In this document: positions 628-47,832 of the stretch, in pieces
Layout: the number at the start of each line of letters is the position of its first letter
How positions within the stretch are numbered: the first letter of the stretch is position 1
DNA from: Candidatus Pacearchaeota archaeon
GTDB lineage: Archaea; Nanobdellota; Nanobdellia; UBA10117; JABICX01
Assembly (NCBI GenBank): GCA_017608025.1
Contig: JAFCGM010000002.1
Span: forward strand, 6,250-70,249
DNA length: 64,000 nucleotides
Reading direction: 5' to 3'
Notes under the pieces: generated by a model
What the model saw: only the letters and a program-made list of their open reading frames with translations
What the model was told of the DNA's origin: nothing
The model's database searches: none
Translations under genes and position numbers: made by a program

Positions 628-686
628 CTGCCTTTTTCAAAAAAAGGCAAGGTGCTAAAAATTCTCGCTTCGCTCGAAAAAAGCAT
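626..686. repeat. Family-B hairpin element
   Basis: ctgcctttttcaaaaaaaggcaaggtgctaaaaattctcgcttcgctcgaaaaaagc. Related copies at 917-951, 12520-12568, 12618-12668 and 28832-28888 (reverse). Confidence 0.7.
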
Positions 687-1026
687 TTAGGAATACAAAC
701 AGTTTTTAGAGGAATTTGTAGTTAAAATCCTTCCAGGCTCGCTTGCCTGCAAAATCAGGCAGCACTTTAGTCGTATAGAGCTTCGCTGCATATAACTTTT
801 TTCTTTGGGCAAATTACTTTTTCTTTTTTAGAATGCGTAGCCGCCTTAGGCTCTGCCTTAATGGAGGTTCTTTTCCAAAGAAAGTCTAAAGAAAAGGCAA
901 AAGACCTTGAACTTGCTCTGCCTTTTTCAAAAAAAGGCAAGGTGCTAAAAAGCCATTTTGGAAAAAGCGCAAGCAGAAAAACAGGTTAATCTTGCTGAGC
1001 AGGAGTCTCTTCGCCAAAAGAACTAA

Positions 1027-2162: not shown

Positions 2163-3365
2163 TTAACCTCCGATAAAGAACTGTATAAATGGTCCTGCAA
2201 TTGTTATTAAAAGCAAAGCCAAAGTTACGATTGAAACTGACTTGAAGATTTTCCTTGCTTTTTTCTCTTTAAGGAATTTTTTAAGAACTGCAAAAAACAT
2301 TCTTCCCCCGTCTGTCGGGCCAAGAGGAAGCAGGTTGAAAAGTCCTATTCCTATGTTTAAAATAATAATCCACTGAAACAAAACAAACAAATACCTTACA
2401 AAATACTCTCCAATGCTGTTTTTCAAGAAAGAGCGCATCTGTATCTGGCTTAAGAAAACACCTACATACGCTACTTCTGAATTTGTTGGGTTTTCCCCAG
2501 TTTCAACAGCATAAGCGCCTGAAGATGTTTTAATTAAAATTGTGTCTCCTGGTGAAATTTCAGACAGGACAGAATTAAAATCTTCTTTTGATTCAATTTG
2601 AATGTTGTTTATTGAGAAAATTTTATCATCTTGCTGAATTCCTGCAATATCTGCTGGCGCGCCTTCTTCAACAGACCAAACCACTGGGCTTTCTGACTGA
2701 ATGAAAAATGCTGATGCTCCAAAAATTACAGGATTAAATAACAACACTGCAATTAAAAGAGCAATTACTGCACCGCAAAAATTAGCAAAAGGCCCTGCTG
2801 CAAAAACCGAAAGCTTTTTTGAGAGCTTTTGCTTTTCAAGTGATTTTTCATCTGGCTCTACAAAAGCAAGAGGAAAAATAAGAAATATTCCAAGGCCTGT
2901 TGAAAGAAGTTTGAGCTGGTGCGCTCGGGCAACAATTCCGTGGCAACCTTCATGAATTACAATTACTATAAGCAATACTGGAATAAAATACTCAATTGGT
3001 ACAAACATGAAAAGAGGTGTATCTGCTGCAAATGGACCTGGTAAAACAAGCTTAACTGCTGATTCTGCAGCCAACGGATTTAAGAGAAAGCGAATAACAA
3101 GGAACACTAAGCAAAAAGATATAAAAGCCATTCCTAAAAATCCAACTCCAATTCCTGTGTATCCCCAGTATTTCCAGAAGCAGGACCTTGAAAGTCTGTC
3201 AATAAGTTTTATTCCTGCTTTTGTTCGATAAAGAAAAAGAATATATTCTCGTTGGATTTTCTTTCGGTTTTTATACAGCAAAAAGCCCACAATAGCATAG
3301 AAAAGTAAGAACAGAGTCCAACCAAAAGGATTTTTATTAAAAACAGAGATTAATACTTCAAGCAT
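2163..3365 (-). CDS. Site-2 protease (M50 family) with PDZ domain
   Basis: HEGCH (HExxH) and LPLGPTDGG (LDG) motifs. Multi-pass membrane protein. Confidence 0.8.
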   Translation of the reverse strand: MLEVLISVFNKNPFGWTLFLLFYAIVGFLLYKNRKKIQREYILFLYRTKAGIKLIDRLSRSCFWKYWGYTGIGVGFLGMAFISFCLVFLVIRFLLNPLAAESAVKLVLPGPFAADTPLFMFVPIEYFIPVLLIVIVIHEGCHGIVARAHQLKLLSTGLGIFLIFPLAFVEPDEKSLEKQKLSKKLSVFAAGPFANFCGAVIALLIAVLLFNPVIFGASAFFIQSESPVVWSVEEGAPADIAGIQQDDKIFSINNIQIESKEDFNSVLSEISPGDTILIKTSSGAYAVETGENPTNSEVAYVGVFLSQIQMRSFLKNSIGEYFVRYLFVLFQWIIILNIGIGLFNLLPLGPTDGGRMFFAVLKKFLKEKKARKIFKSVSIVTLALLLITIAGPFIQFFIGG

Positions 3366-4811: not shown

Positions 4812-4980
4812 TTTTTCTTGATTAATCTTCTTTTTTGAAAAGAAGATTATGCGGAGAGGAGGATTGTGTAACCCTGGGAATCCCCTTTCAAAAAGGGTCT
4901 TCCAACCTTCAAACGCATTGTGGATTGTTTTCTTGATTAATCTTCTTTTTTGAAAAGAAGATTATGCGGAGAGGAGGATT
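4812..4980. repeat. 53-bp direct repeat containing the tRNA-Leu 3' end and its downstream hairpin, flanking a 62-bp insert
   Basis: ttttcttgattaatcttcttttttgaaaagaagattatgcggagaggaggatt at 4812-4864 and 4928-4980. The insert carries the ccctttcaaaaagggtcttccaacc motif. Confidence 0.85.
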
Positions 4981-12029: not shown

Positions 12030-12473
12030 CTAAACTACCTTCAAAAGTTTTCGAAGTACTGTTGAAAATACCAAAGAACTAATAATATATACACCAATCC
12101 AGCCCAATCCAGTTTCAAGGCTGCTTAAAGGAATATGAAATGAAAGCGGAATTACAACTGTTCCTTCAAATACAGTTCTAAGCCATGCAAAGATTGCGAA
12201 AAAAGGAATAATTGTTATGAGCATCGGCTTGAAAGACTCTTTCATGAGCTTCATATTCATGCTCATTGACTTTTTCTGAAGCTCTGCAGCTTTTTCTGGG
12301 TGAGCCTTCATCTGCTGCTGCATCTTCTTCATTTCAGATTTAAGCTCTTTCATTAAAGCTTGGTTTGTCAAAAATTTGTAGACCAAAGTTACTGCAAGAG
12401 AAAGAATTGCTGAGATTAACAAAATAGAAACCACGGGATTTTGCTGCAATATCAAAGCTAATGAATCGAACAT
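12030..12473 (-). CDS. DUF106-family membrane protein (archaeal YidC/Oxa1-like), directly downstream of secY
   Basis: Three TM helices with a coiled-coil loop. Conserved genomic position after secY in archaea. Confidence 0.55.
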   Translation of the reverse strand: MFDSLALILQQNPVVSILLISAILSLAVTLVYKFLTNQALMKELKSEMKKMQQQMKAHPEKAAELQKKSMSMNMKLMKESFKPMLITIIPFFAIFAWLRTVFEGTVVIPLSFHIPLSSLETGLGWIGVYIISSLVFSTVLRKLLKVV

Positions 12474-12514
12474 GTTCTATTTACTGACTTTTTTATATAT
12501 AATCTTTACCATTT

Positions 12515-12690
12515 TATCTTTTCAAAAAAGCTCCGCAAAATTCTCGCTTTGCTCGAAATTGAGAAAGATTAGTCTCGGTGCATGATTTTTTTGAGAGCAG
12601 TTTACTTGTCATGGAGCTTTTCAAAAAAGCTCCGCAAAATTCTCGCTTTGCTCGAAATTGAGAAAGATTAGTCTCGGTGCATGATTAAGC
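12515..12690. repeat. Two tandem ~97-bp units, each a family-B hairpin element plus a copy of the last 20-31 bp of secY
   Basis: ...gagcttttcaaaaaagctccgcaaaattctcgctttgctcgaaattgagaaag + attagtctcggtgcatgatttttttgagagcag. The genuine secY 3' end is at 12780-12812. Confidence 0.8.
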
Positions 12691-12779
12691 TTTTTTTAGA
12701 AAAAAGCTTGCAAAAAACAAAAAAATAGTTTTTCTTTGGGAAACTTACACTTTCTTTTTTCTAAAAAGAAAGGGGAGAG

Positions 12780-14171
12780 TTAGTCTCGGTGCATGATTTT
12801 TTTGAGAGCAGGATACATGTCAAATGCATGGTATTTTGCAATTTCCTCATAAAGCTTGTAAATAATCATAACTGTAAGTAAAATTCCTGTTCCACGACTC
12901 AATGCTCCGGAAATGTCTGCTAATGCTGCAAGGAAACCGACAAGCGCTCCACCCATTACAGTTAAAGCAGGAATGTATCTGTTGAGAATTGATTCAAGAA
13001 CGCGAGGGTCTCTCCTAAATCCTGGGATTTGCAATCCAGATGATAGAATTTGCTTTGCCTGAGCATCTGCGCCCATATTGGATGTCTTTACCCAAAGTAT
13101 TGAGAAGATAATTGCGCCAACAACCATAATTGAAATGTAAACCACTGTTTGCAGAATTATTTCTCCTGTTGCTGTGCCTGAAACAATTGAACGAATTATA
13201 TCTGGAGAATGAACCCATTTTACAATTCCAGAAGTTGGTGTTGAACCTTCAAAAGTTCCAAAAATCGGCATTCCTAAATTTTGGAAAAGTCTAGCAAGTA
13301 GCTGTATGTTTGCCAGCAAAGCAGCAATAAGAATAACGGGAATATTAGAACTGTAAATAAATCTTAATGGCCAGCGCATTCCATATCCGCGCACTCGGCC
13401 AAAAGAAAGTGGTATTTCAACTTTCATTGCCTGACCATAAACTGCAATTAAAAACACAACAATTGTCGCTACAATTGCTATTAAAGCAATTAATGCACCA
13501 AGAGAATCTCCCATTCCAAGGGCTTTGAAAATGTAAGGGATTTTTCCTGCAGGAATGTTTGGATTTGTTGGTGATGGCAAAGGATTAAATGCTGCAATGA
13601 AAATCTGTCGAGCAACTCCTCCTGCAATAAACAAGCTTACTCCTGATCCGAAACCCCATTTTTGAACAACCTCATCTAACAAAACTAAAAGGTAACCTCC
13701 AATAATTAGCTGTCCTACTAATCCGAGCTGAAGCCAAAGATACTGACTTGTTCCTGCAAGCTCTGCAGCAGGGGCGAGTCCACCCATAAAAACATAAATA
13801 ACAGCTTCTAAAATTATAAAGCCGATTGTGAAAACTTTTTGCATAGCCTGGAATTTCTTCTTTCCTTCCATAGTTGTAAGGTCTATATTTATTAATCCAG
13901 AACCAGCAAGAAGCTGAAGAATAATAGATGCTGTTACAATAGGACCAATACCTAAAGAAACTATTGAACCAAAACTTGCTCCAAGAATAATTGAAAGAGA
14001 TTCAAATTGAGAAAGAGCGTTTTGTCCAAGGCCTTGAAGAGGGATGTGAAGCAAAACAAAATAGAGTACTAAAACCCCTGCAGTCCATTTAAGCTTTGTT
14101 TTAAAACCAAGCTTTTTTGTCTTTGGGGAAACTATTTCAGGCAAAAATGAGTTTATTAGCTTCCAATTCAT
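12780..14171 (-). CDS. secY: Preprotein translocase subunit SecY
   Basis: 10-TM SecY/Sec61-alpha sequence. Last gene of the spc-like operon. Confidence 0.95.
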   Translation of the reverse strand: MNWKLINSFLPEIVSPKTKKLGFKTKLKWTAGVLVLYFVLLHIPLQGLGQNALSQFESLSIILGASFGSIVSLGIGPIVTASIILQLLAGSGLINIDLTTMEGKKKFQAMQKVFTIGFIILEAVIYVFMGGLAPAAELAGTSQYLWLQLGLVGQLIIGGYLLVLLDEVVQKWGFGSGVSLFIAGGVARQIFIAAFNPLPSPTNPNIPAGKIPYIFKALGMGDSLGALIALIAIVATIVVFLIAVYGQAMKVEIPLSFGRVRGYGMRWPLRFIYSSNIPVILIAALLANIQLLARLFQNLGMPIFGTFEGSTPTSGIVKWVHSPDIIRSIVSGTATGEIILQTVVYISIMVVGAIIFSILWVKTSNMGADAQAKQILSSGLQIPGFRRDPRVLESILNRYIPALTVMGGALVGFLAALADISGALSRGTGILLTVMIIYKLYEEIAKYHAFDMYPALKKIMHRD

Positions 14172-16381: not shown

Positions 16382-16840
16382 TTACTTGTCTTGCTTTTTC
16401 AAAAGATTGTGCTGCCTTATATAAAGATTAAGGTGCTTCTTGCTTCTGAAAAATCCTCCTTTTATTTTCAAATAAAGTTCTCTGTAAGTATCTTTCTCAA
16501 GCTGGTCTTTATTTTTCAGGTTTTTTAAAACTTTTCTTTGACTTCTAACTTTGTTTATCCATTTTTCTTTTGGCGGGGTTCTTGCGCCTCTTTTCCCTTT
16601 CTTGCTTGCAATTCCTCTTTGCCTTCCTTTCTTTTTAGCAAGTGCTGTTGCTCTTGCCCTGTGCCTTGATGTCCCTTTTTTAGGAACTACTGTAATAATC
16701 TGTTCTTTTATTAAAGAGATTATATCACTTTTTGTTATTGCCTGCTTTACTTGCTCTCTTCCTTCTGGAGAAATCTTTACTCGGTTTTTACTTGTGTTTG
16801 CAACTTGAGAAGCAAGTTTCTTTTGGAGTTTTAGTTTCAT
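16382..16840 (-). CDS. rpl19e: Ribosomal protein L19e (eL19)
   Basis: MKLKLQKKLAS...TSRHRAR signature. Confidence 0.9.
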   Translation of the reverse strand: MKLKLQKKLASQVANTSKNRVKISPEGREQVKQAITKSDIISLIKEQIITVVPKKGTSRHRARATALAKKKGRQRGIASKKGKRGARTPPKEKWINKVRSQRKVLKNLKNKDQLEKDTYRELYLKIKGGFFRSKKHLNLYIRQHNLLKKQDK

Positions 16841-17619
16841 TTCTTATTATTCTCCTTTTTGCTATCTTGTGTTTTTGGTTTGTTTTTTGTTTCAGGCTTT
16901 TTTGATTCTGATTCTTTAGTTTGTTTGTTTTCTTTGTTAGGGGCGGTTTCTTTTGCTACAGTCCTTCTGCTGAAGGGACCCACAGCAGTGCTATCTTCGC
17001 CTGGCTCGATATCACTTTTATTTTCTTTGTTAGGGGCGGTTTCTTTTGCTGCTTTTTTTATTTTGGACAAAATCTCCTGCTTTTTCTTTTCATCAATTTT
17101 TTTCTTCTTTTTAATATCTGCAACTTCCTTGTCTTTTTTCTTCAGCTCTTCTTGTCTCTTTTTTTTCTTTTCTGCTTTTTCTTTTTTCTGCTTCTTTCTT
17201 TTTTCATAAGACTCTTTTATTTTCCTTATTTCAGAGTCAAGGTTTCTTATGTTTGAAAATGATATTTTTTTGCTTTTTGCTTTTTCGAGAATTTCAAGGC
17301 GTTTCTTGCTTCCTATTTTTGAAGACAAAATTGCGAAATTTTTCTCTGGATTGAAGTTTTTTAAATCATTGTGATTTTCAACTCTAAAAGGAGTTTTTCC
17401 TTCTTCATTTGCATGCCTTAGAATTGAAATTGTTTTGAATCCAATTGAAACCATCTTTGGTTTTCCTCGTCTTCTAAGCCTTAATTTTGACTGAACTCCG
17501 CGAGGCTTTCTCCACTTTGTTCCAAGCCGTTTTCTCCTGTGAGATTCCTGCCTTTTGAATTCTGGCATTTTCTTTTTTATTTTTTTCTTCTGCTTGGAAA
17601 GTTCTTTTAATGATTTCAT
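16837..17619 (-). CDS. rpl32e: Ribosomal protein L32e (eL32) with ~140-aa K/E-rich C-terminal tail carrying an in-frame repeat-element insertion
   Basis: eL32 core (RRKRLGTKWRKPRG...) followed by a low-complexity tail. Tail contains ...EDSTAVGPFSRRT... flanked by an exact 30-bp duplication. Confidence 0.85.
   Translation of the reverse strand: MKSLKELSKQKKKIKKKMPEFKRQESHRRKRLGTKWRKPRGVQSKLRLRRRGKPKMVSIGFKTISILRHANEEGKTPFRVENHNDLKNFNPEKNFAILSSKIGSKKRLEILEKAKSKKISFSNIRNLDSEIRKIKESYEKRKKQKKEKAEKKKKRQEELKKKDKEVADIKKKKKIDEKKKQEILSKIKKAAKETAPNKENKSDIEPGEDSTAVGPFSRRTVAKETAPNKENKQTKESESKKPETKNKPKTQDSKKENNKK
16958..17020 (-). repeat. Family-A short element (63 bp), in frame inside the eL32 tail
   Basis: gtccttCTGCTGaagggacccaCAGCAGtgctatcttcgcctggctcgatatcac, flanked by exact 30-bp direct repeats (16928-16957 / 17021-17050). 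Confidence 0.85.
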
Positions 17620-19275: not shown

Positions 19276-19992
19276 TTAATTCAACTTTATTGCTGGCTTG
19301 TCTTTTCCAACAACAATAACATTTTTCAAATCAGCTTCAGATAAATTTCCTTTTTCATCTTTTGCTATGGCTATTTTTTGCTTTTTCAATATTCCTTTTT
19401 CAGTGATTTCTTCTAGTTTGGCAGTGCTACCTACTTTTTTTCCACCAAAAAAATACAGCAAGCTTCCTTTTTTAAGAGGAAGGGTTTCTTGCTCTTTTCT
19501 TTTTTCTGAATCATAAACAACTACGTCGCCTGTTTTGTAGTTTCCTTTGCTTACTAAAATGTTCCATCCATTCATGAAATTAAGCTGAATTTTTCCTTTT
19601 TTTATCTTTGACTTGTTTTCAATTCTAAGCAAAAGTATTTTTGCTTCTTTTTCTGGAATTTCTATGAACTTGAATTTTCGATTTTTTCCAATAACAACTC
19701 TGTAGTGCTTATTTATTTTTGGAAAAGAAATTACATCAAAAAGCCCTACTGGGAAATTTATTTCTTTTATTGAACGATTGTTAACAATAACTTCTTTATT
19801 GTAAATCAAATATTTAGCTCGTTTTCTTGAATCTGAAATTTTTAGGATTTCTGTTAAAATAACTGAAAGAGGCATTGAAGTTAATATGTTATGTGTTCCA
19901 GCAATAGGTTTTGCTATCCATTTTATTCCTTTCCTTTTTATTGGCCATGCTTTTGGTGCATTAAGCCTTGATAGATGTTGTTTCTTACTCAT
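19276..19992 (-). CDS. rps4e: Ribosomal protein S4e (eS4)
   Basis: MSKKQHLSRLNAPKAWPI... eS4 N-terminus. Confidence 0.9.
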   Translation of the reverse strand: MSKKQHLSRLNAPKAWPIKRKGIKWIAKPIAGTHNILTSMPLSVILTEILKISDSRKRAKYLIYNKEVIVNNRSIKEINFPVGLFDVISFPKINKHYRVVIGKNRKFKFIEIPEKEAKILLLRIENKSKIKKGKIQLNFMNGWNILVSKGNYKTGDVVVYDSEKRKEQETLPLKKGSLLYFFGGKKVGSTAKLEEITEKGILKKQKIAIAKDEKGNLSEADLKNVIVVGKDKPAIKLN

Positions 19993-20515
19993 TGTTTTTT
20001 CCTCCTTTTGAATCAGTTTTTACTGGCTTTATTGTTTTTGTTGATGATTTTTCAATTGCTTGCTTTCTTGTCCTTCCAGCGAAGGGACCCACGCTGGCGC
20101 TATCTTCGCCTTTGGCTCGATAGCTCTTAGATTGTGATGATTTTTCAATTGCTTGCTTTCTCTTCTTGTCAGATAAATCAATATCAATTATTTGAACATT
20201 TGAAGGAGATATTGGGTATTTAATTACTCGGCCTTCTTCTTTTTTGAATTCTGCTTTTCTGACAAAGATTTTGCTCTTTTTTAGAGACACTTTTTCAACT
20301 TCTCCAATCAATCCTTTGAATTGGCCTCTAAGGATTTTTACCTTGTCTTTAACTCGAATTGGAATGTTTCTTGTATTGTATTTTTTTCGCAAATCTTTTG
20401 AAAGTAAAGCAGACATAAACTTTCTTTTTACATGAAGCGGAGAATTGAATCGATATTTCCTCTGCTTTCTAGGCTGTTTGCTTGACTTCCATTTTTTAGA
20501 CCAAAGAGTTTTCAT
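19985..20515 (-). CDS. rpl24: Ribosomal protein L24 (uL24, KOW) with C-terminal tail carrying an in-frame repeat-element insertion
   Basis: KOW motif KVKILRGQFKG. Tail contains ...EDSASVGPFAGRT... flanked by an exact 27-bp duplication. Start taken at MKTLW. Confidence 0.85.
   Translation of the reverse strand: MKTLWSKKWKSSKQPRKQRKYRFNSPLHVKRKFMSALLSKDLRKKYNTRNIPIRVKDKVKILRGQFKGLIGEVEKVSLKKSKIFVRKAEFKKEEGRVIKYPISPSNVQIIDIDLSDKKRKQAIEKSSQSKSYRAKGEDSASVGPFAGRTRKQAIEKSSTKTIKPVKTDSKGGKNNE
20069..20134 (-). repeat. Family-A short element (66 bp), in frame inside the uL24 tail
   Basis: gtccttCCAGCGaagggacccaCGCTGGcgctatcttcgcctttggctcgatagc, flanked by exact 27-bp direct repeats (20042-20068 / 20135-20161). 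Confidence 0.85.
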
Positions 20516-20520
20516 TTTGA

Positions 20521-20925
20521 TTATAACATTATGCTTGCTGTTTTTGCCACCTGAGACCATCGATATGCAACTTCTTTTGCAATCGGACCTTTAATTAAAG
20601 TACCTTTTGGTGTTCCCAAACGAACATCACGCAAAACAATTCCTGCATTGTCCTCAAATTTAACTTTTGTTCCGTCAGGTCGGGAATATTCCTTTTTTTG
20701 CCGGACAATAACGACAGGAACAACTTGGTGCACCATGTCTGGCTTTCCTGCCTTAACAGCAACAGTAACCAAGTCAGAAACGCCTGCAGAAGCAAGCTTT
20801 CTTGTTCTTGTCTTATAACCGCGAACAGAGATTATCTGTCCAAGTCTTGCTCCTGAATTATCTGCTATGTTAATTACAGTTCCCAAAGGCATGCTTTTTG
20901 ATATTCTTGTTTTTACTGATTTCAT
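20521..20925 (-). CDS. rpl14: Ribosomal protein L14 (uL14)
   Basis: MKSVKTRISKSMPLGTVINIADNSGAR... uL14 sequence. Confidence 0.9.
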   Translation of the reverse strand: MKSVKTRISKSMPLGTVINIADNSGARLGQIISVRGYKTRTRKLASAGVSDLVTVAVKAGKPDMVHQVVPVVIVRQKKEYSRPDGTKVKFEDNAGIVLRDVRLGTPKGTLIKGPIAKEVAYRWSQVAKTASIML

Positions 20926-22015: not shown

Positions 22016-22221
22016 TATTTGTTTTTTACCTCCGTATTTTTTATGAACATTAACCTAGCAATAGTTTTTCGTATCTCACGAATTCTCCCGGCATTTTCCG
22101 GAGTTGCTCCAGCACTTATTTGGGAATTCAGCTTAAGTACTTCTTTTCGCAATTCCTCTATTTTTGAATCAATTTCCTTTGAACTCATTTTTCTTGCATC
22201 TTTTGCTCTGATTATTGCCAT
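22015..22221 (-). CDS. rpl29: Ribosomal protein L29 (uL29)
   Basis: MAIIRAKDARKMSSKEIDSKIEELRKEVLKL. The 14 upstream codons in the ORF track are the repeat element, not protein. Confidence 0.85.
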   Translation of the reverse strand: MAIIRAKDARKMSSKEIDSKIEELRKEVLKLNSQISAGATPENAGRIREIRKTIARLMFIKNTEVKNK

Positions 22222-22303
22222 TGTCCTTCTGCTGAAGGGACCCACAGCAGCTCTACCGAGCAAAGCTCGATAGCGCGAATGGATTCCTTAGTTTTTTTCC
22301 TCC
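22222..22303 (-). repeat. Family-A full-length element (A4) occupying the whole S3-L29 junction
   Basis: Minus-sense: GGAGGaaaaaaaCTAAGGAAtccatTCGCGCTATCgagctttgctcggtagagctgctGTGGGTCCCTTCagcaGAAGGACA then ATG. Its first 16 nt encode the S3 C-terminus and stop. Confidence 0.85.
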
Positions 22304-23124: not shown

Positions 23125-23606
23125 TTCTTAACCTCTTTTTTATTGGTTTTTTCTTCTTTCTTTTTTCCTGTTTTTGACTCAATCACAACTTCAAAATGTG
23201 CTATTTTCCTTTTTCTGCCTCTGTGCCTTCCATAGTGCCAAGAGGTTGGTCCTTTTTGCGCAGAAGCGTGAATTATAATAAGGTCTTTTTCATCAAATCC
23301 TTTTTCAAGTGCATTTGAAACTGCAGCATACACTACTTTTTTTATTTCATGCACTGTTTTGACAGGATATCTTCCTGTTGCTATTTTTCCTCTTCGATGA
23401 GGTATGCTTTTGTAAAACTTTTTGTAAGGCACAGGCATTTTCTTTTCAAGAATCCAGTCCAGCTCTCTTTTAACTCTCTTTATTTCTTTTCCTTTCAAAA
23501 AATTAGCAACTTCAATAGCCTTTTTTCTTGATATTGGCAAGTTAAGGCCTACTGCTCTAGCCATTCTTTCTTTGTTGAATTCCTGAAATACATAATTGTA
23601 TGCCAT
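23121..23606 (-). CDS. rpl22: Ribosomal protein L22 (uL22)
   Basis: uL22 sequence. Confidence 0.9.
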   Translation of the reverse strand: MAYNYVFQEFNKERMARAVGLNLPISRKKAIEVANFLKGKEIKRVKRELDWILEKKMPVPYKKFYKSIPHRRGKIATGRYPVKTVHEIKKVVYAAVSNALEKGFDEKDLIIIHASAQKGPTSWHYGRHRGRKRKIAHFEVVIESKTGKKKEEKTNKKEVKK

Positions 23607-23684
23607 TGTCTTTAAAGCAAAGGACTTGCGCGGGCTCTACCGAGCAAACTCGATAGCGCGAAAGTTCCTTAGTTTTTTGCCTCC
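23607..23684 (-). repeat. Family-A variant element (A5) between S19 and L22, abutting the L22 ATG
   Basis: GGAGGcaaaaaaCTAAGGAACTTTCGCGCTATCgagtttgctcggtagagcccgcgcaagtcctttgctttaaagaca then ATG. Confidence 0.75.
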
Positions 23685-24251: not shown

Positions 24252-24965
24252 TTACTTGCCGCGTCCTGATTTTTTAGCTGAAAGCATTCCAACTTTCTGT
24301 CCTGGTGAACGTCCTTTTCTTCTTACAGTTGTTGATGTAGGTCTGTGCCTTCTGTGCGTTCCACCGTGTGGGTGGTCAACTGCGTTCATTGCAACTCCTT
24401 TTACTTTTGAAACAAGCTTGTTTTTTGCTTTTCTTTTGTGGTATGAGTTTCCAGCCTTTATTAAAGGCTTGTTTTTAACTCCAACTCCTGCAACTACTCC
24501 AAGAGATGCATAGCATTCTGGATTTAGTTTTATTTGCCTTTTTGAAGGCATCTTAATTACAATATTTTTCTTTTCTTTTGCAACCAATATTCCAGAAGCT
24601 CCTGCTGCTCTCAAAAGCTTTCCATTTTGTCCTGGAACTTTTTCTATGTTGAAAACTCTTGCTCCGATAGGAATGTCTTTCAAAGCAATTGCATTTCCAA
24701 CTGAAGAGTCTTTTCCTCCATAAAAAACTGTTTGTCCAACTTTGATTCCCATTGGTGCTGGAAGCAAACACATTTGATCATCTTCATATTTTACTATCAT
24801 TAGTGGAGCTGAGTGTCCTACAGAGTTTACAATATCAATAACCTCCCCCTGAAGTATTTCTTTGGACTTAATTGGGTAACGAATTTCTCCAAAATAACGG
24901 TGGCTTGGAGACTTATATCTAGGTGAGCCTTTTCCTCTTCTTTGCGTAATAAGCCTTTTTCCCAT
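24252..24965 (-). CDS. rpl2: Ribosomal protein L2 (uL2)
   Basis: uL2 sequence with a GGTHRRHRP-type C-terminus. Start taken at MGKRLITQRRGKG. The 11 upstream codons in the ORF track are the repeat element. Confidence 0.9.
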   Translation of the reverse strand: MGKRLITQRRGKGSPRYKSPSHRYFGEIRYPIKSKEILQGEVIDIVNSVGHSAPLMIVKYEDDQMCLLPAPMGIKVGQTVFYGGKDSSVGNAIALKDIPIGARVFNIEKVPGQNGKLLRAAGASGILVAKEKKNIVIKMPSKRQIKLNPECYASLGVVAGVGVKNKPLIKAGNSYHKRKAKNKLVSKVKGVAMNAVDHPHGGTHRRHRPTSTTVRRKGRSPGQKVGMLSAKKSGRGK

Positions 24966-25074
24966 GTCCTTCTCGCGAAGGGACCCACTCAGCCGCAAAA
25001 TCGGCTGGCGCTTTCATCAGGCAGATGTTGGTCTGATGCCTGATAGCGCGAAAGTTCCTTAGTTTTTTGCCTCC
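24966..25074 (-). repeat. Family-A long element (A6, 109 bp) between L23 and L2, abutting the L2 ATG
   Basis: GGAGGcaaaaaaCTAAGGAACTTTCGCGCTATCaggcatcagaccaacatctgcctgatgaaagcgccagccgATTTTGcggctgagtGGGTCCCTTCgcgaGAAGGAC then ATG. Confidence 0.85.
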
Positions 25075-25099
25075 ATTATTTTTATCATTATTCTTCTCC

Positions 25100-28396: not shown

Positions 28397-28562
28397 GGTT
28401 TTCCTAAAAAGCCTATTCTAATTTAAAAGTGTTTCTATAGAAAAAAATAGAACACTAACTATAATATGTAAAAAAAGTAAGTATCACAAATTGTCAAATC
28501 CATAATTATATCTGCTACAGGATTTATTTTACTTTAAAAAGTGTTTGTATTCCCAAAGCTTT

Positions 28563-28656
28563 CTTAGAAAGAAAGCTTGCAAAGAACAACATTTTTCTTA
28601 GAAAGAAAGCTTGCAAAGAACAACATTTTTCTTAGAAAGAAAGCTTGCAAAAAATT
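28563..28656. repeat. Tandem repeat, 34-bp unit x ~2.8, each unit a palindrome (gctttctt-aga-aagaaagc)
   Basis: cttagaaagaaagcttgcaaagaacaacattttt repeated head-to-tail. Confidence 0.85.
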
Positions 28657-28661
28657 GAAAT

Positions 28662-28714: not shown

Positions 28715-28889
28715 AATAGCTCTTTTTCTTTTCGAGAACATTTTCTTTTTCAAAAGAAAAGGTTCAAGCGAGCCCGGAGGGATTCGATTACCTCGGCAAA
28801 CCCTTTAAAAAAGTGTTTGCATTCCCAAATGTTTTTTTCGAGCGAAGCGAGACTTTTTAGCAACTTGCCTTTTTTTGAAAAAGGCAGAG

Positions 28890-29052
28890 CGAGCCCGGAG
28901 GGATTCGAACCCTCGATCTACAGCTAACTCCAGCACATTAAAGTCTTTTAGCTTATCTTTGCAGGCATCGCATTTTGTTTGCCTGCTCAAAGCGCCAGCC
29001 AATTTTGCGGCTGTAGGAGGCTGTCGCCCTATCCAGACTAGGCTACGGGCCC
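28890..29052 (-). tRNA. tRNA-Arg(CCT) with 88-nt intron at 37/38; the intron carries a family-A repeat module
   Basis: Acceptor GGGCCCG/CGGGCTC. Anticodon stem ACAGC/GCTGT with loop CTCCTA^A. T-arm GAGGG-TTCGAAT-CCCTC. Intron contains CAGCCG-CAAAAT-TGGCTG plus a long stem. Confidence 0.65.
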
Positions 29053-35894: not shown

Positions 35895-36842
35895 TTATTT
35901 TTTCAGCATTTTCTTTTTTCTTATTCTTCTATAAATGAAGAATCCTGTTACTGCAATTACTGCAAACAAAAAATATATTCCATATGGCGCTGGTTTTTGG
36001 GCTAAACCATATTTGTATAGGTCTTTCTGAGAATACACGCGAATATCTATTGTCTGCTCATCCATGTAACTTCTACTGTTTGCATCAGTATATTCAAGTG
36101 TAAATGGAAGAGTTATTATTTTAGTTTCAGGATTTTTTGAATCTGATTTAAAATAAATGTCAAAAACTGCAGTTTCAAAATCATCTGACTCAAGTTCGCC
36201 AACATAAACTTCGTGCGGTGAAAGAACAATGTATTCATCTGTTTCATCAAGTGTTATTGTCAGGTATTTTGTATTTAGTGAGCCTTTATTTACAATGTTT
36301 GTTGTAATTCTTGATTTCTTGTTAAATGATACAGAATCCAAATCTTCAATTCCCACATCAACCCTTGGCTCTCCACCAGTTTTCACTGTTATTGTCACAG
36401 ATGTTTTTTTCATTTCTTTTTCACATTCGCTGTCGCTACATGAAATAAATTCAAGAGAATAATCTCCTGCTTTTGTGTTCTCATTTACAAAAAGCCTGTA
36501 ATCAAGAAGCTTATTCGAATTTGTTCCGATGATTCCTGTGCTTTTTATTGAATCTTCTCCCGGAACAAGGGAAAACGGATATTCTGGATTTACTTTTATG
36601 TATGCATTATCCAATTGCTCATTTCCAATATTCTGGACAGATATCCAAACGCGCAGAGTGTTGTCTGGCTCAGCAGGAACTGGGTCGTAGTCCTTAAGCA
36701 CAACCTTAACATCTGCATTTTCAGCTACAAGGGCCATTGCCGCAAACGGAACTATTACTAAAATTGTAAAAAGTGCGAAAAGCACTTTAATTGCTTTTTT
36801 CATTTTCAACTCTCCCATCTTTAAGATAAAACACTTTCTCAT
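35895..36842 (-). CDS. Exported protein with C-terminal membrane anchor (ABC-transporter-associated)
   Basis: Signal-like N-terminus, beta-rich body, C-terminal TM helix plus RRIRKKK. Co-transcribed with the permease and ATPase. Confidence 0.4.
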   Translation of the reverse strand: MRKCFILKMGELKMKKAIKVLFALFTILVIVPFAAMALVAENADVKVVLKDYDPVPAEPDNTLRVWISVQNIGNEQLDNAYIKVNPEYPFSLVPGEDSIKSTGIIGTNSNKLLDYRLFVNENTKAGDYSLEFISCSDSECEKEMKKTSVTITVKTGGEPRVDVGIEDLDSVSFNKKSRITTNIVNKGSLNTKYLTITLDETDEYIVLSPHEVYVGELESDDFETAVFDIYFKSDSKNPETKIITLPFTLEYTDANSRSYMDEQTIDIRVYSQKDLYKYGLAQKPAPYGIYFLFAVIAVTGFFIYRRIRKKKMLKK

Positions 36843-39009
36843 CTCGAGCTAATTTTTCGAAACGAGAATCGTGAGTTACGATTATTAATGTCTTATTTTT
36901 GTTTTTCCACAAATCAATTAAAATCTTCACAATCTTTTTTCCTGTTTTTGAATCAAGATTTCCTGTTGGCTCATCAGCAAGAATTATTTCTGGATCGTTT
37001 GCAAGAGAGCGGGCAATTGCAACTCTTTGTTGCTCTCCGCCAGACATTTCAGAAGGAAGATGATTTTTTCTGTGCTCAAGGCCAACTATATCCAAAAGCT
37101 CTGATGCTCTTTTAATTCGCTCTTCTTTAGATATATTCTGAAAGACCATTGTAAGAGCAACATTTTCAATTGCAGTAAGGCTTTGAATCAAGTTGAATTT
37201 CTGAAATACAAATCCTATTTTGCTTCCACGAATTTGTGCAAGCTCTGACTCTTCAAGAGAGGAAATGTCTTTTCCATTAAGATATATTTTGCCTTTTGTT
37301 GGAACATCAAGGCATCCAATCATGTTCATTGCTGTAGAATTATGAACAATAAACTCATTTGCTATAAAATTATCTGCACCAGGAACAGTTATGTCATAAA
37401 CTGTTGTCTTTTTATTTATTTTTTTGACTGCAATAACCTTATCCCAAAAAATATCTGAGTCGATTAACGCAGAAAGTTTATCTGTATTGATTTTGTTTTC
37501 TGAAAGAAGATTATTAATCAATTTTAATTTATTCACTGAAGGATTAATTCTTTTAGACTCATATGGATTAAGAACTTTATGAATTCTTCTTGATACTTTT
37601 ACTTTAGACTCTCTTCTAACTTTCTGTAATAATTCTCCACAAGGAATTACATCTACATTCGTATTCTCTTTGTTTTTTAAGTGGCTAAGAAGCCTTTTTT
37701 TCTTATCTGATGAAATAAAGCCAATGTGCTTCTCATACAATTTAAGATTGTTCAATCCAGAAATAGATAATAAATAATAAAATCTATTTGTTTTTTTATT
37801 AAATTTTTTGGGGAGTCTAGAAACAATTCCATACCTCAGAAGCAAATAATTTAATTGAGTGATAAGGTCTTTGCTTGCAAGAGTTATTGCTACTTCTTTT
37901 TTGTTTTTTGAAACATAACCATCACAATCAAACAATGCCCTAATAAAAGCAGCAATTTCTTTGTTAGAACATCTAAAAACAAATTCCGGCAGTTTTATTT
38001 TTCTTGATTTAAGATTTAGAGGAAAATTAAATATTTTATTGAAAAAAATAAGTAAGACCTTATTATTAACAGCTAATCTTGTATCCATAAATTTTTTTGC
38101 ATCAACTTCAAAAATTCGATTTACTAAATAAGAAAATCTCTCATTTATTTTTGGGTCTAAATTTGTAAATTTTATTCCATCCTTATCTAAATTTCCATCT
38201 CCTGCAATAAAGCCATATAGCTCCATTAAATCTTTAGAAATCTTTTTCGGCATTCTTACTTTATTGTGCGAACCTGCAGGAGTTATATAAAAATTACACT
38301 TATATTCAGAAATATCTGTACCACAGTAATCCATAATTTTCTTAAAATTCTCCAATGAAATATTATTATTATGTTTCCAAGCATCATAACTAAAGTAATT
38401 AAATTTCAGTTTCTTGCATAATTCCTTTCCAGAAATCTTTGAATTTTTGAGAAGTTTTCGGATTAATTTGCTTGAATCAAAGAGATATAATCTTTTGTTT
38501 GCACTTGCAAGTTTTAGCAAATCAATTTCTTGTTTTTTTGGTTTTGTATTTATTTTTCTTGCTGTGGCAACAAAAATTCCTTTTTTAAGATTTGTTGCGC
38601 GAATTTCACTGAAGCCATTAGAATCTAAAGTGAAAAAGGGATGTTCTGGAGTACTTACTATTTTTTTGCCTGAAGAAGTTGTAATTTCATAAATCTGATT
38701 CGCTTCTCGTTTATAAAAATCAGAGACTCTGAAAGGTTTAATTTTATTGGATTTTCTATCTAATGCAAGAACTTTATATTTCTTATATTTTCTTTCAAAA
38801 TCTTTTAGATTTATTAAAGAGCCATCTTCCAAAAACAATTTAGTGTCTCCAGTAAGGCATTTTCCACTGCCTGATGGGCCCATTATAACAACAAAATCTC
38901 CTTGATTTACTTTAAGGCTTAGGCCTCGGAGTGCTGGAACTTCCACTGCACCCATTTTATAAATCTTCCAAGCATCTTTGATTTTAATAAGTGTTTTTGA
39001 GGAAGTCAT
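36787..39009 (-). CDS. ABC transporter ATP-binding protein (MacB/LolD-type) interrupted by a 507-aa intein
   Basis: Extein N-part ends GPSGSGK, then intein CLTGDTK...IVHN, then extein resumes [16 protein letters not shown]-like SGGEQQR, Walker B ILADEPT and H-loop all present. Confidence 0.85.
37339..38859 (-). other. Intein with LAGLIDADG homing-endonuclease domain, inserted in the Walker A P-loop (GSGK^ST)
   Basis: Block A Cys1 (CLTGDTKL), LAGLIDADG pair [11 protein letters not shown] / [12 protein letters not shown], terminal HN followed by +1 Ser. Confidence 0.8.
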
Positions 39010-41950: not shown

Positions 41951-42937
41951 TTAAAACGCCTGTTTATAGTCAGGAGCGTCTCTTGGCGAAAAATCAATCT
42001 CAATATCAAAAGAAAAAATAGCTTTCACCAAAATACAAATATTATAAACCAAACATTTCAAATACAATTCATTTACTTGAGATTCAAAGTTCTTAAAATA
42101 TAATTTAGCACCAAACTTACGCTTTAATGCACTGAAGCTTGCTTCTACATTAGACCTTTTGTGATAGTGCTTATAGAATTTACTTCTATTCTTACGGAAC
42201 AGTTCCAATGAAGTTTTCCAAACACCGCTTTTTCTCTTCATTCCACAATTACTTCTGAAAGGAATATATGGAACGCCACCATAATGATGAACCGTCTCTA
42301 AATTATGCCTAGAAGAATATGCTTTATCTCCTAATACTTCATCAATCTTGAAATTCTCAGCAGTTCTTGAAACTAACTTATCAAATTCAGGAGAATCATG
42401 ACATTCACCTGTAGTAATTTCAAGAGAAGTAATTACATTCGTAAAAATCCCACACATTGCATGACATTTAACAAATTTATGCCTGTCATTATATCCGACT
42501 CTTGAATCAAACCATCTCTCATAACTATTAGTTGAGAATCCAGTCGAATCAACTGCAAACCTAGTCTCCAAGTATTTCAAAGGCATAGCAGACATCATAA
42601 GTAAATAATTCAATGTTGGGGTCAAAGATTTTCTTCTCATGTAGTCCGTAACAGAAGAATGATGTGGGACTTTTTTAATATATCCCATATCTTTGAGAAA
42701 CCATAATTGAGATGTAAGTGTTCTTGAAGGCATCCCAAAATATAACTTCATAGCTAGGCAGAAGATTACATCCTTTTGATTGTGCATTGGACGACCTTTT
42801 TTCTTTATTGGTTCCGATACAGTTTCATCCAATAGATTTCTGAGGATTTCAACAAAGAGTCTACCTTCCTTAGTTTGCGCTTTATTGTAGGAAGTCCAGT
42901 CTCTATCTTTTGTGAATTCTTTAATTTTTGATTGCAT
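41951..42937 (-). mobile_element. IS5/IS4-superfamily DDE transposase gene (IS ends not resolved)
   Basis: DDE_Tnp_1-like blocks FAVDSTGF, LGDKAYSS, EASFSALKRKFG. Confidence 0.7.
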
Positions 42938-42959: not shown

Positions 42960-43090
42960 ATATATAGACTTTATTAGTCTAATATCTCATTATTATTAGT
43001 CTTTATAAATATTTCGAAAATGTTACTATCTTAGACTAATAACTTTTAGACTAACGAAACATTAATATATGTTTAATTAGACTATTATAT
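42960..43090. repeat. Iteron-like array of TAGACTAAT / ATTAGTCTA motifs, with palindrome tagactttattagtcta
   Basis: At least 5 copies in 130 bp, directly upstream of two small regulatory-type genes. Confidence 0.5.
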
Positions 43091-43506: not shown

Positions 43507-43534
43507 AAAAAAGAAAAATATGACTGAATAAAAT

Positions 43535-46155: not shown

Positions 46156-46860
46156 TCAAAGCTGGTTAAAGCATCTCTTGAAGTTCTTTTCGATCTGTTC
46201 CTCAACATCTTCTGGGGAGAACTTCTTTATTCTGGCAATCTCCCTAATTACTTTTTTTATGCTTGTTTTTGGGTTGTCTGTTATATACGGGAAATCTGTT
46301 TCTGTTAAGATTCGCGAAAGAGGAACTATTTCAACTAGCTTCTTAACTTCTGGATACTTGAAGATGAAAGTGTTGATTGAAAAGTAGAATTTAGACTTTA
46401 TGTCTTCAATTAATTCTGGGTTTCCTGTGTATGAATGAATTACTGCCTTTCCATTATAATTTTTAAGCATTTTTGCAACTACTCCTTCTGCCTGCCTGCA
46501 GTGTATAATCACTGGCTTGTTTATCTGCTTTGCAAGCTTCAGAATTTCGCTGAAGTATTTTTTGTGCACAGGCCTTTCTGTTTTTGATGAATATTTATAG
46601 TCAAGCCCTACTTCGCCGACTGCGACTATTTTGTTTTTTTTATTTTTTATTTCTTCAAACTCGGCATAAATTTCCTTTTCAAGATATTCGGAAAATCTTG
46701 TTGGATGGAAACCGATTGCTGCAAAAACATTTTCATATTTTTCAGAAAATTTTAGAACTTCTTTATTTGACTCTGGGTCAAGACCGTTTACTATTACAGG
46801 AATGTTCTTGTATTTTTTAAAATCTTTTTCTTTTGCATGTGAATGTGCGTCGTATAGCAT
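46156..46860 (-). CDS. tatD: TatD-family deoxyribonuclease/hydrolase
   Basis: MLYDAHSHA..., HCRQAEG, VIHSYTG and TETDFPYI TatD motifs. The upstream extension in the ORF track is repeat-derived. Confidence 0.8.
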   Translation of the reverse strand: MLYDAHSHAKEKDFKKYKNIPVIVNGLDPESNKEVLKFSEKYENVFAAIGFHPTRFSEYLEKEIYAEFEEIKNKKNKIVAVGEVGLDYKYSSKTERPVHKKYFSEILKLAKQINKPVIIHCRQAEGVVAKMLKNYNGKAVIHSYTGNPELIEDIKSKFYFSINTFIFKYPEVKKLVEIVPLSRILTETDFPYITDNPKTSIKKVIREIARIKKFSPEDVEEQIEKNFKRCFNQL

Positions 46861-46914
46861 TACACAATAACCTCGATTATTACTCTTATTAATGAGTAAT
46901 GTATGTACCAGTCC

Positions 46915-46980
46915 TTCTAGCCAAGGGACACAAGCTGGTCGTGTACAGCAGAGCTGCACACAACTTAAACCTTAATCTCA
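46915..46980 (-). repeat. Family-A short element (66 bp) flanked by 39-bp direct repeats
   Basis: ttctagccaagggacacaagctggtcgtgtacagcagagctgcacacaac... between attattactcttRttaatgagtaatgtatgtaccagtcc copies at 46876 and 46981. Confidence 0.7.
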
Positions 46981-47019
46981 ATTATTACTCTTGTTAATGA
47001 GTAATGTATGTACCAGTCC

Positions 47020-47078
47020 GTTTCGCCCGGACTGTGCGAAAGCGCATTGCTTCGCAATGCACTATACTTTTATTTCAG
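47020..47078. repeat. Family-C structured element (copy 1), nested next to the family-A copy
   Basis: gtccg-tttcgcc-cggac hairpin plus gcgcattgc-ttc-gcaatgcac hairpin. 96 bp between flanking repeat copies. Confidence 0.65.
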
Positions 47079-47832
47079 TTATTACTCTTGTTAATGAATG
47101 ATGTACATACCATTCAAACTCATTTATTACATTATATTTTGATAGGTCTAATTTAAGGGTTTTGGGTCGAATGAAAATTATCTTGTGATTTTTCTTCACG
47201 ATTTTATGTGCTTCTTCTAAAAAAGAGTTGTAAAGAGTTTTTATTTTTTTGCCGGCGAGAGTCGAGCTTTTTCCATATGGAGGATCGCAAACAATTGCTT
47301 CAATTTTATCAGAGAACAATGAAGATATGTTTGTAGCATCTCCAATAATCACCTGCCAATCTTTTCCTTCCCTTATGTTATATTTATCAGAATAAAATCT
47401 AAGATTGGTTTTGGAAGCTTGTGCAGCTTTCCATTTAATATCTATTCCTATTCCTTTAATTCCAAGAATAGCACTTTCCAAAATAATAGAACCTGTTCCG
47501 CAAAAGGGATCTACAATTTGATTCTTAGCTTCAGACAAGTTAATTAAAAGACGGGCAAGCTTTGGTTTTAGTGCTGTTGGATGAAATGCTGGCTTTTTCT
47601 GAGGTTCTCGGTCCAGAAACTGACCAGATTTTCTTTCCCATATGCAATAATCATTTAAGTAAGCTTTTTTTATTCCTGCGCTTTTTACACACAAATCAAT
47701 TATTTTCTTAGAAGGAATTTTTTTGCTGAAAAATACATAATTTTCTTTTAATTTAGAATTAACATTAAAAAGGATATCAACCTCCCGCTTAAATGCGGAC
47801 AGGTTTTCTCCAGAAATTCTCAGCTTAATCAT
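47062..47832 (-). CDS. tRNA (guanine-N2)-methyltransferase, Trm11/Trm-G10-like
   Basis: DPFCGTGS (motif I) and DPPYG (motif IV). Confidence 0.6.
   Translation of the reverse strand: MIKLRISGENLSAFKREVDILFNVNSKLKENYVFFSKKIPSKKIIDLCVKSAGIKKAYLNDYCIWERKSGQFLDREPQKKPAFHPTALKPKLARLLINLSEAKNQIVDPFCGTGSIILESAILGIKGIGIDIKWKAAQASKTNLRFYSDKYNIREGKDWQVIIGDATNISSLFSDKIEAIVCDPPYGKSSTLAGKKIKTLYNSFLEEAHKIVKKNHKIIFIRPKTLKLDLSKYNVINEFEWYVHHSLTRVITEIKV

Follow-up and report, generated by a model that had tools for sequence, protein, structure and literature searches.

Duplicated gene ends and small hairpin cassettes behind secY in a woesearchaeon

The spacer between secY and DUF106

The window analysed here, a stretch of 64 kb (64,000 nucleotides, nt) from contig JAFCGM010000002.1, carries the translocon gene secY followed by a gene for a DUF106/EMC3-TMCO1-like membrane protein, and this work concerns the spacer between them, which holds extra copies of the secY 3' end together with small hairpin cassettes. 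Coordinates are window positions. Both genes lie on the minus strand, and the layout of a site is read in the secY orientation unless stated otherwise. The SecY protein of 463 amino acids (aa) has SecY homologues in Pfam and is 90% identical to protein P0001; it places the window in Woesearchaeota (DPANN archaea), with a best GTDB match of 82% identity. The downstream gene matched EMC3_TMCO1/DUF106 in a profile scan. The spacer is 306 nt long, and its parts follow the genuine secY tail (S) in the order E1, S', B, S'', B, TATA-like box and DUF106 ATG (Table 1). Sequence comparison showed that the TATA-like box, the putative promoter of DUF106, is conserved in the sister lineage L236.

Table 1. 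Features of the secY-DUF106 spacer and repeat-flanked sites elsewhere in the window.
Feature	Coordinates	Strand	Remarks
secY gene (463 aa)	12780..14171	minus	stop codon TAA at 12780-12782
S, genuine secY tail	12780..12822	minus	final 43 nt including stop; template for both downstream copies
E1, composite cargo	12687..12779	minus	93 nt, directly after secY stop codon
S', secY-end copy	12668..12686	minus	19 nt, exact, including TAA
Proximal family-B unit	12613..12667	minus	TCTTTCTCAATTTCGAGCAAAGCGAGAATTTTGC plus perfect 9-bp hairpin GGAGCTTTTTTGAAAAGCTCC
S'', secY-end copy	12569..12611	minus	43 nt; family D2
Distal family-B unit	12518..12568	minus	51 nt identical to proximal unit
TATA-like box	12488..12505	minus	TTATATATAAAAAA (minus-strand spelling); about 29 nt 5' of DUF106 ATG
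DUF106/EMC3-TMCO1-like gene	12030..12473	minus	ancestral immediate neighbour of secY
Full-length family B after stop of open reading frame (ORF) 16-627	628..700	plus	directly after the stop; no flanking repeat
Full-length family B after tRNA 28890-29052	28810..28888	minus	directly after the tRNA 3' end
tRNA-Leu site	4813..4980	minus	53-nt repeat (16 nt of tRNA 3' end plus 37 nt with hairpin) around 62-nt cargo; period 115
tRNA 28890-29052 site			21-nt repeat
S17/L14 stop-start overlap			26-nt repeat
ORF 24252-24965 site			31-nt repeat
ORF 51996-52328 site			22-nt repeat, three copies
Methyltransferase gene 47062-47832, tail	46860..47124	minus	last 17 codons in three serial versions; family D4
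Two ribosomal-protein tails			34- and 27-nt repeats, both period 93

The end of secY is present three times. Positions 12780-12811 and 12569-12600 agree exactly over 32 nt, and the match widens to 43 nt (12569-12611 against 12780-12822) at 93% identity. All 3 mismatches of S'' fall in the 11 gene-internal nt, all are A in the downstream copy, and they create a stop codon. With 0 of 32 core bases and 3 of 11 edge bases mismatched ((11/43)^3 = 0.017 by our own arithmetic), the clustering looks like the end of an exchange tract. The 19-mer of the secY tail has three exact occurrences in the window and none in 100 shuffles even with up to 2 mismatches, so that the tail copies cannot be attributed to chance. 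The sequence-only reading that preceded this work had described the triplication, the B unit behind each downstream copy and the relatives of B elsewhere in the window, and these observations were all reproduced with slight shifts of coordinates, the short copy, for example, starting at 12668 rather than 12667.

The two B units have a common origin. Positions 12518-12587 and 12617-12686 form a perfect 70-nt direct repeat with a period of 99 nt, and the simplest reading is one local tandem duplication of the 43-nt tail plus B, 99 nt long. Independent insertions are rejected because the 51-nt B unit and the adjoining 19 nt are identical, whereas other B copies agree only to about 84% over a 31-nt core. 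As in a head-to-tail duplication, there is a single novel junction of 4-5 nt, CTCC(A). The CTCC (12613-12616) ends the proximal unit and is missing from the distal one, whose hairpin is truncated (…GAAAAG, then ATAAAATGG); the junction turns this truncated hairpin, GGAGCTTTTTTGAAAAG, into a perfect 9-bp palindrome, as fold-back synthesis would do. Thus the repeat-flanked architecture recognised in the sequence-only reading is real, recurrent and non-random, but its view of the B units as two insertions, each carrying a tail, gives way to one duplication. E1 did not arise by tandem duplication, its cargo being foreign to the locus.

The full-length B copies at 628-700 and 28810-28888 (reverse complement) are about 90% identical over some 80 nt and consist of the hairpin plus ...GCTAAAAAKTCTCGCTTCGCTCGAAAAAARCATTTRGGAATRCAAACA. 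The secY copies are cut off after GCTCGAAA and differ from full B in the hairpin stem, while 918-951 holds the first 34 nt of B only. Position 28888 abuts the 3' end of the intron-containing tRNA 28890-29052 (minus strand; Rfam), and a 21-nt copy of that 3' end follows the B copy at 28767-28787. A 17-nt B core, TCTCGCTTYGCTCGAAA, lies at 12540-12556, 661-677 and 28838-28854. Scans with this core found it in at least 120 metagenome contigs and in 34 IMG/VR contigs (loci L082-L235; GC content 0.24-0.73), mostly as one arm of a widespread palindromic repeat, ...GAGAAATCT-loop-AGATTTCTCGCTTCGCTCGAAATGACA. Its other strand reads TTTC-GA-GCGAAGC-GA-GAAA, built round the very stable d(GCGAAGC) mini-hairpin, and in L199 palindromic units of this type abut a tRNA 3' end. 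These metagenome and IMG/VR scans added no further copies of the window's B family, because the core is not lineage-specific and occurs mainly in contigs of unrelated base composition.

E1 joins a C-type module to the palindrome AAGCTTTTTTCTAAAAAAAGCTT (families D3, D7, D12 and D14) and is bracketed by the 19-nt secY-tail repeat formed by S and S'. C-type modules have the general form of a T/A-run hairpin, GTAAGTTKCC-CAAAGAAAA and an A/T-rich TATA-like run; in E1 these parts are the hairpin CCTTTCTTTTTAGAAAAAAGAAAG, then GTAAGTTTCCCAAAGAAAAAC, then the A/T-rich run. There are 8 C-type copies in total, with relatives of E1 at 815, 10778, 24206, 30194, 49826, 52369 and 52448, and two copies 25 kb apart are nevertheless identical at 43/43 positions (family D3). 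The E1 palindrome is related to a 34-nt triple repeat at 28560-28661. Judged only by what is known of archaeal consensus sequences, the T/A-run palindromes may be read as putative bidirectional oligo-T terminators and the conserved C-module box as a putative promoter of the TFB-recognition element (BRE)/TATA type; a scan for bacterial promoters and terminators was uninformative, the host being an archaeon.

Comparison of secY-DUF106 spacers among relatives, which the sequence-only reading had proposed, revealed both empty sites and recurrent tail copies with unrelated cargo. Among most relatives the DUF106 gene begins within 5-50 nt of secY, and in many (e.g., L007-L011, L043 and L045) a gap of 5-20 nt separates it from the secY stop. 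L001, the closest relative that has no cassettes, shows a compact ribosomal-protein operon from which the window's elements are missing altogether: all spacers are free of cassettes, and the L32e tail lacks the 93-nt in-frame insert seen at 16924-17050. The window's spacer is therefore derived, since relatives have a short junction and L001 has no cassettes. The window's cargo families are absent from 80 relatives. L272 and L273, the nearest to the carrier L021 (86% and 82% at the aa level), have clean empty sites of 43 and 51 nt. The L021 genome (L274) has an extra insert of about 100 nt at 3020-3120, 3' of the distal secY-tail copy, which contains its own 12-nt repeat GGCGTGACATT(T)GA twice and is missing from the two empty sites. 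The 306-nt spacer is best explained by several small events stacked up at the stop codon of secY.

Recurrence at secY and at other gene ends

To place the window's locus among its relatives, copies of the secY tail of at least 16 nt were counted within 350 nt downstream of the gene in 79 GTDB relatives. Such a copy is present in 9/79 (L019, L021, L034, L046, L049, L051, L056, L058 and L060), while the copy in L016 is shorter; about one related lineage in eight is affected. Of the remaining ORF ends in these loci, 4/1129 have a tail copy; the secY end is a hot spot, with a frequency about 30-fold that of other gene ends in the group. Carriers are not grouped as nearest relatives of one another, and at the secY site alone the repeats measure 19, 27, 38, 43 and 54 nt. 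The sister lineage L236/L081, with a secY 90% identical to that of the window at the aa level, has a spacer of 377 nt, in which a 27-nt exact copy of L236's own tail spelling lies behind a wholly different cargo of 144 nt. L236 and L081 are independent assemblies that are identical over 646 nt; contig L081 ends inside a repeat.

In 6 lineages one cargo family, F, was found, exclusively at secY ends and each time accompanied by a tail copy. Its two hairpins show some compensatory changes and its right junction is constant, with ...GGTTTGTGA(T/CC) on its left side and TGGAC on its right. A covariance model search of 957 kb found no F elsewhere. Manual inspection showed that in F carriers the repeat starts exactly at a near-palindrome able to pair with its own second copy (GGACAUGCAUCC). 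Synonymous divergence among the F lineages is saturated. Searches against Rfam 15, also at permissive thresholds, returned only tRNAs and 5S rRNA, and nothing in the spacer or in F.

The distal tail copies have kept their coding competence. In 7 relatives, 22/23 codon differences between the two copies are synonymous or exchange one stop for another, and both copies encode the same peptide; the expected synonymous fraction is 0.14 (binomial P = 5e-18). The distal secY tail is thus not a decaying target-site duplication, because a neutral footprint would change at all codon positions. The stop codons are asymmetric as well: L019, L046, L058 and L060 have TGA at the gene-proximal end and, in the distal copy, the TAA or TAG used by their closest relatives free of the insert. 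A single crossover between a host tail and an incoming tail would produce the reciprocal pattern observed in L019, and both there and in L056 the DUF106 ATG still directly follows the distal copy. The second tail copy is either supplied as a functional-type gene end or kept under selection by continuing exchange. Stop-codon read-through into the distal copy was rejected, because the periods (85, 108, 112, 116, 126, 128, 141, 164, 166 and 211) are not consistently multiples of 3. A diversity-generating retroelement was also discarded: the secY residues at the S'' mismatches are conserved in L081, the repeats are short, and no reverse transcriptase occurs among 20 scanned ORFs.

The same architecture is found at many other sites in the window, where a local sequence, a hairpin cargo of 57-144 nt and the same local sequence follow one another (Table 1). 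The window contains 20 local direct repeats of at least 18 nt (3.1 per 10 kb); the density in 340 kb of relatives is 0.7 per 10 kb, and shuffles have 0-3 such repeats. At the methyltransferase gene, all three tail versions keep the reading frame and have their stop in an equivalent position, and an A-type element lies ahead of each of the two downstream ones; synonymous change is in excess, with synonymous to non-synonymous counts of 6:4 and 4:7. Across all sites the flanking repeats vary from 11 to 54 nt and the cargo from 32 to 144 nt, with no ORF inside. At about half of the A, B and C family copies no flanking repeat reaches 10 nt. The cargos have one constant and one variable end, and inspection revealed no terminal inverted repeats at the cargo ends of A, B, C, E1 and F. 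The 3' end of the cargo is imperfectly homologous to the target just 5' of the repeat (e.g., CAGAAGGACAG at 20921/21091, GACAAGAA at 20161). Whole units are amplified in tandem, which recombination between the repeats would be expected to cause: 99 nt twice at secY, 79 nt twice with one extra repeat, 87 nt three times in L034 and about 100 nt three times at 46860-47124.

Several observations concern individual modules. Family-A elements lie in frame in the lysine-rich C-terminal tails of two ribosomal-protein ORFs, one L32e-like (16837-17619; element at 16924-17050) and the other ORF 19985-20560 (element at 20042-20161). Both have a period of 93 nt, with flanking repeats of 34 and 27 nt, and a core ...GAAGATAGC-stem-GTGGGTCCCTTC-stem-GAAGGAC in which the 6-bp stem covaries (CTGCTG/CAGCAG vs CCAGCG/CGCTGG). 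In ribosomal-protein operons, repeat-free copies of family A, at 22215-22285, 23600-23680, 24960-25075 and 56115-56190, exactly span the interval from a stop codon (..AACTAAGGAAC..) to the following ATG (..GAAGGACAATG). Their central GUCCCUUC could pair with the upstream AAGGAAC or with the Shine-Dalgarno-like GAAGGAC, and they look like candidate translational control or coupling devices; Rfam gave no match for them. A hairpin module, CAGGCATC...GCCTG followed by AAAGCGCCAGCCRATTTTGCGGCTG, occurs in 3 places (28958-29010 and 24990-25045 in the window, 568-610 in L236): it makes up most of the intron of tRNA 28890-29052, in opposite orientation, lies inside the family-A element 5' of ORF 24252-24965, and forms part of the cargo behind secY in L236.

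The spacer 3' of tRNA 28890-29052 is a dense stack of similar events. It includes the 34-nt unit TTTCTTAGAAAGAAAGCTTGCAAAGAACAACATT three times in tandem at 28560-28661 and a 22-nt repeat, AAAAAGTGTTTGYATTCCCAAA (28536-28557/28808-28829), which brackets 250 nt of nested modules. At about 1031-1110 on the minus strand, ...GCCTGAGACTCCGGTTCAAATCCGGATGGGG resembles a tRNA T-arm and acceptor 3' end. ARAGORN and Rfam reported no tRNA there, and the segment could be a disrupted, split or intron-rich tRNA gene.

Origin of the duplicated gene ends

We read the repeats as recombination sites comparable to attL and attR rather than as filled-in staggered cuts, with a probability of roughly 0.4. Direct repeats that include the 3' terminus of a gene and leave it intact are found at secY, tRNA-Leu, tRNA 28890-29052 and the methyltransferase gene 47062-47832, as well as at secY in 10 relatives and in L236, and in the relatives the second copy is a functional-type gene end. 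Elements bounded by attL and attR at the 3' ends of tRNA and conserved protein genes (proviruses, plasmids and islands using tyrosine recombinases, whose attP carries a replacement gene end) share these traits: a repeat over the last tens of nt, an intact gene, a displaced copy that keeps the downstream junction, a functional element-side copy, repeated use of one gene end across lineages, and similarity that fades at the repeat edges. The present loci differ from them in that the cargo is gene-less, 32-144 nt long and drawn from dispersed intergenic hairpin and promoter-like modules, and the repeats enclose neither an integrase gene nor cargo of kilobase size; in addition, some inserts are found in coding tails that are not conserved, and viral scans found no helper element.

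In the window, one event would have been the local duplication of the 43-nt tail with B, giving the 99-nt tandem repeat, and another the placement of E1, built from dispersed intergenic modules, right after the secY stop. In Woesearchaeota, a recurrent process would place a short hairpin cassette directly after the secY stop and with it repeat the last 11-54 nt of the gene, and it would also act at tRNA and other gene ends in the window's lineage. The unit that moves or is exchanged would be the cassette plus gene tail, 85-170 nt, inserted by recombination inside the tail homology. After the exchange the gene would end in one copy, and the displaced one would retain the earlier stop as well as the earlier junction with the following gene. 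Through these repeats, excision, tandem amplification, gene conversion or re-insertion could then take place, by which both copies would stay coding-competent. The intermediate may be a popped-out unit or DNA from a relative, and the enzyme either host homologous recombination or a trans-acting site-specific recombinase. Host homologous recombination could suffice, because the carried tail works as a homology arm. New cassette-tail combinations would most likely originate by template switching or by fold-back synthesis at a palindrome, as the junction homologies and the palindrome-completing secY junction suggest.

To find candidate enzymes, 20 ORFs of the window (the ten largest and ten others) were scanned with Pfam and NCBIfam. 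No integrase, Cas1, casposase or reverse transcriptase was found among them; they include an IS5-family transposase, RtcB, TatD and an ABC ATPase with a LAGLIDADG intein. The last is the ABC-type ATPase ORF 36787-39009 on the minus strand, whose intein has a LAGLIDADG homing-endonuclease domain (Pfam Intein_splicing, LAGLIDADG_3). The IS5-family DDE transposase ORF 41951-42937, also on the minus strand (NCBIfam NF033579, 168 bits), has no clear inverted ends or target duplication, and its flanks have no similarity to the cassettes. Two small winged-helix-like ORFs adjoin it at about 43090-43510. This transposase was dismissed as the mobilising enzyme for want of any link to the cassettes; it is the sole transposase-type ORF in the 64 kb, and no cognate transposase was found among the scanned ORFs.

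Several points weigh against recombination sites of the att type. Neither a recombinase nor an integrase was found inside the cassettes or close to them; units of this size could not encode such an enzyme, and as double-stranded circles, at about 100 bp, they would be physically awkward. Horizontal co-transfer of the secY 3' region with F gave no signal, the carriers showing no sign that upstream secY sequence had travelled along. Viral scans for viral or plasmid contigs with an F element or the window's secY tail gave none, or chance matches only, which argues against an attP-bearing virus or plasmid. The inserts in the ribosomal-protein tails (16924-17050, 20042-20161) are not explained by prior att-like homology and need a de novo duplication. 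The core sequences of the window's own secY tails are identical, so the synonymous-site evidence comes from the relatives and the methyltransferase tails, and in the latter the signal is weaker than in the relatives. Finally, the coding competence of the distal copy could stem from use at the RNA level.

A purely mutational origin is a minority possibility, rather unlikely overall, which remains strong for the window's own events, especially the ribosomal-protein-tail inserts. Replication or repair template switching (slippage, fold-back priming at T/A-run palindromes or over-extended break repair) would create the duplications, with optional filler copied from other spacers that contain hairpins, and selection would retain only those events that damage neither the gene end nor the signals of the following gene. 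Pure tandem repeats without foreign cargo do occur in the same spacers (99 nt twice here, 34 nt three times at 28560-28661), the CTCC junction makes the B palindrome complete, an outcome expected of fold-back synthesis, and the variable repeat lengths and cargo boundaries, as well as the homologies between cargo 3' end and target, fit such errors. The repeat-free half of the family copies could act as sources, inserts in non-conserved ribosomal-protein tails are accounted for, and no enzyme is required, matching the null enzyme scan. Yet a neutral distal copy should decay everywhere, and instead 22/23 changes are synonymous. Nor would this origin predict that secY ends are so strongly preferred, or that F has kept its sequence and a constant right junction in six lineages; also, the cargo belongs to multi-copy families with 43/43 identity at loci 25 kb apart. 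Flap mis-processing in rad27/FEN1 mutants produces short tandem duplications with inserted filler. Error-prone repair duplications of this kind resemble the present sites in the repeat-filler-repeat order, the size of tens of bp, the junction micro-homology and the pure tandems alongside; they differ in that here the filler is conserved and multi-copy, secY is strongly preferred and the distal copy is constrained by coding. Loss of HELQ has been linked to tandem duplications (PMC8654963).

A trans-acting integrase or transposase, Cas1/casposase-like or IS1634-like, that cuts the strands 20-50 nt apart would make the repeats true target-site duplications. That several cargo families share the same flanked architecture speaks for one such enzyme, as do the lineage-specific burst of repeats, with families absent from relatives, and the perfect repeats at most window sites. 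IS1634 and IS1549 are known for long direct-repeat duplications of variable length, and the cassettes resemble them in this respect; those elements differ in being of kilobase size with inverted ends and a DDE transposase of their own, whereas the only transposase in the window scores as IS5-type and its IS1634 match (E = 0.0018) falls below the cut-off. The term 'variable-length direct repeats' is used in a paper dealing with IS1634 (PMC2266710). No Cas1 or integrase was among the scanned ORFs. The flanking repeats, 11-54 nt, also lack the fixed length of casposons (14-15 bp) or of one CRISPR repeat. Moreover, the cassettes lack terminal inverted repeats, their targets share no conserved motif, and one cassette end varies; about half of the copies have no repeat of 10 nt or more while others are perfect, and the B-B pair is a local duplication. 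The synonymous-only divergence and the stop asymmetry are unlike a footprint. We therefore regard the single insertion process put forward in the sequence-only reading, taken here as staggered-cut insertion, as improbable, given the variable repeats, the lack of inverted termini, the repeat-free copies and the synonymous-only divergence.

Removal at the RNA level is attractive but unsupported, and more doubtful still. The tRNA splicing endonuclease and RtcB would excise the cassette with one repeat by acting on a bulge-helix-bulge (BHB)-like pairing of the repeats, GGACAUGCAUCC, and the distal tail would become the coding end of the mRNA, with the ancestral junction restored. This would explain why both copies stay coding-competent and why the distal copy keeps the ancestral junction. 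Circumstantial points in its favour are the near-palindromic repeat start in F carriers, which can pair with the second copy, the RtcB gene in the window, and the L236 cargo module that equals the intron of tRNA 28890-29052, where it has the opposite orientation. DPANN splicing endonucleases with an L3 loop and broadened specificity go with more disrupted tRNA genes (PMC5829648). Against such splicing, the motif has 2-nt bulges in place of the canonical BHB of 3-nt bulge, 4-bp helix and 3-nt bulge; it is lost in L019 and L058, with nothing comparable at the window's own tail, and there are no Rfam matches. The proximal copy is intact everywhere, so that a functional protein needs no splicing.

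An assembly artefact, with strain variants or a low-complexity spacer concatenated by the assembler, is the refutation envisaged in the sequence-only reading; it is not borne out and is extremely improbable: although all sequences are metagenome assemblies, contig L081 breaks inside a repeat and two strain alleles would also show synonymous differences, the repeat lengths sit at no k-mer size, the sequence common to secY and the cargo-tail junctions is 3-4 nt at most (not enough to mis-join an assembly graph), one F-tail junction recurs in six metagenome-assembled genomes (MAGs) from different projects, two independent assembly pairs are identical (L236/L081; L021), and cargo families recur at many loci.

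Related elements and significance

The cassettes can be compared with two further groups of elements. In fungal mitochondria, for example at atp6 of Allomyces, essential genes can receive at their 3' end a mobile insert that supplies a substitute C-terminal coding piece and leaves the old one downstream, and double-hairpin elements populate the spacers of the same genomes. The woesearchaeal sites are alike in having an insert at an essential gene end with a leftover tail, and small two-hairpin elements in spacers; they differ in that the fungal insert encodes a homing endonuclease, whereas no such ORF is present here and the host is archaeal. Miniature inverted-repeat transposable elements (MITEs), repetitive extragenic palindromic (REP) and bacterial interspersed mosaic (BIME) elements, Correia elements and Rickettsia palindromic elements likewise are multi-copy hairpins of 40-100 nt in the spacers of compact genomes, and family A resembles the Rickettsia elements further in lying in frame inside ribosomal-protein ORFs. 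The hallmarks of MITEs and DDE transposition are lacking: there are no terminal inverted repeats, the repeats are 11-54 nt long and not a fixed target-site duplication of 2-10 nt, and many copies have none. We class the locus as combining an att-type gene-end duplication with small dispersed repeats.

DPANN genomes are very compact, and little is known about how new DNA, promoters and terminators enter them. Here, the entry points of the small hairpin cassettes are exactly the gene ends, a spare set of the final codons comes with them, and this spare gene end is kept translatable-looking instead of decaying. This points to an enzyme-poor, recombination-based mobility that lands at conserved gene ends, or to duplicated ends with an unrecognised function. 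For annotation, such repeats break assemblies (as in L081), create spurious small ORFs and can mislead operon and tRNA annotation in DPANN MAGs.

An unlikely but far-reaching version of these ideas is that the units are gene-less mini-cassettes of 85-170 nt, including a portable copy of the target gene's final codons, which would home to the 3' ends of essential genes (secY, tRNAs) and be inserted, excised and exchanged with no enzyme of their own. They might rely on host recombination, with the carried tail as homology arm, or, more radically, on an RNA-level 'att' reaction by the tRNA splicing endonuclease and RtcB on paired repeat copies that is later fixed in DNA, and in the window's lineage ancestral operons would have been split by their terminator- and promoter-like modules. 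Literature searches covering DPANN and Woesearchaeota turned up no account of hairpin cassettes that lack genes and accompany coding-competent duplications of the secY end. If the mini-cassette reading is true, these units would represent a previously undescribed class of gene-less mobile cassettes in Woesearchaeota.

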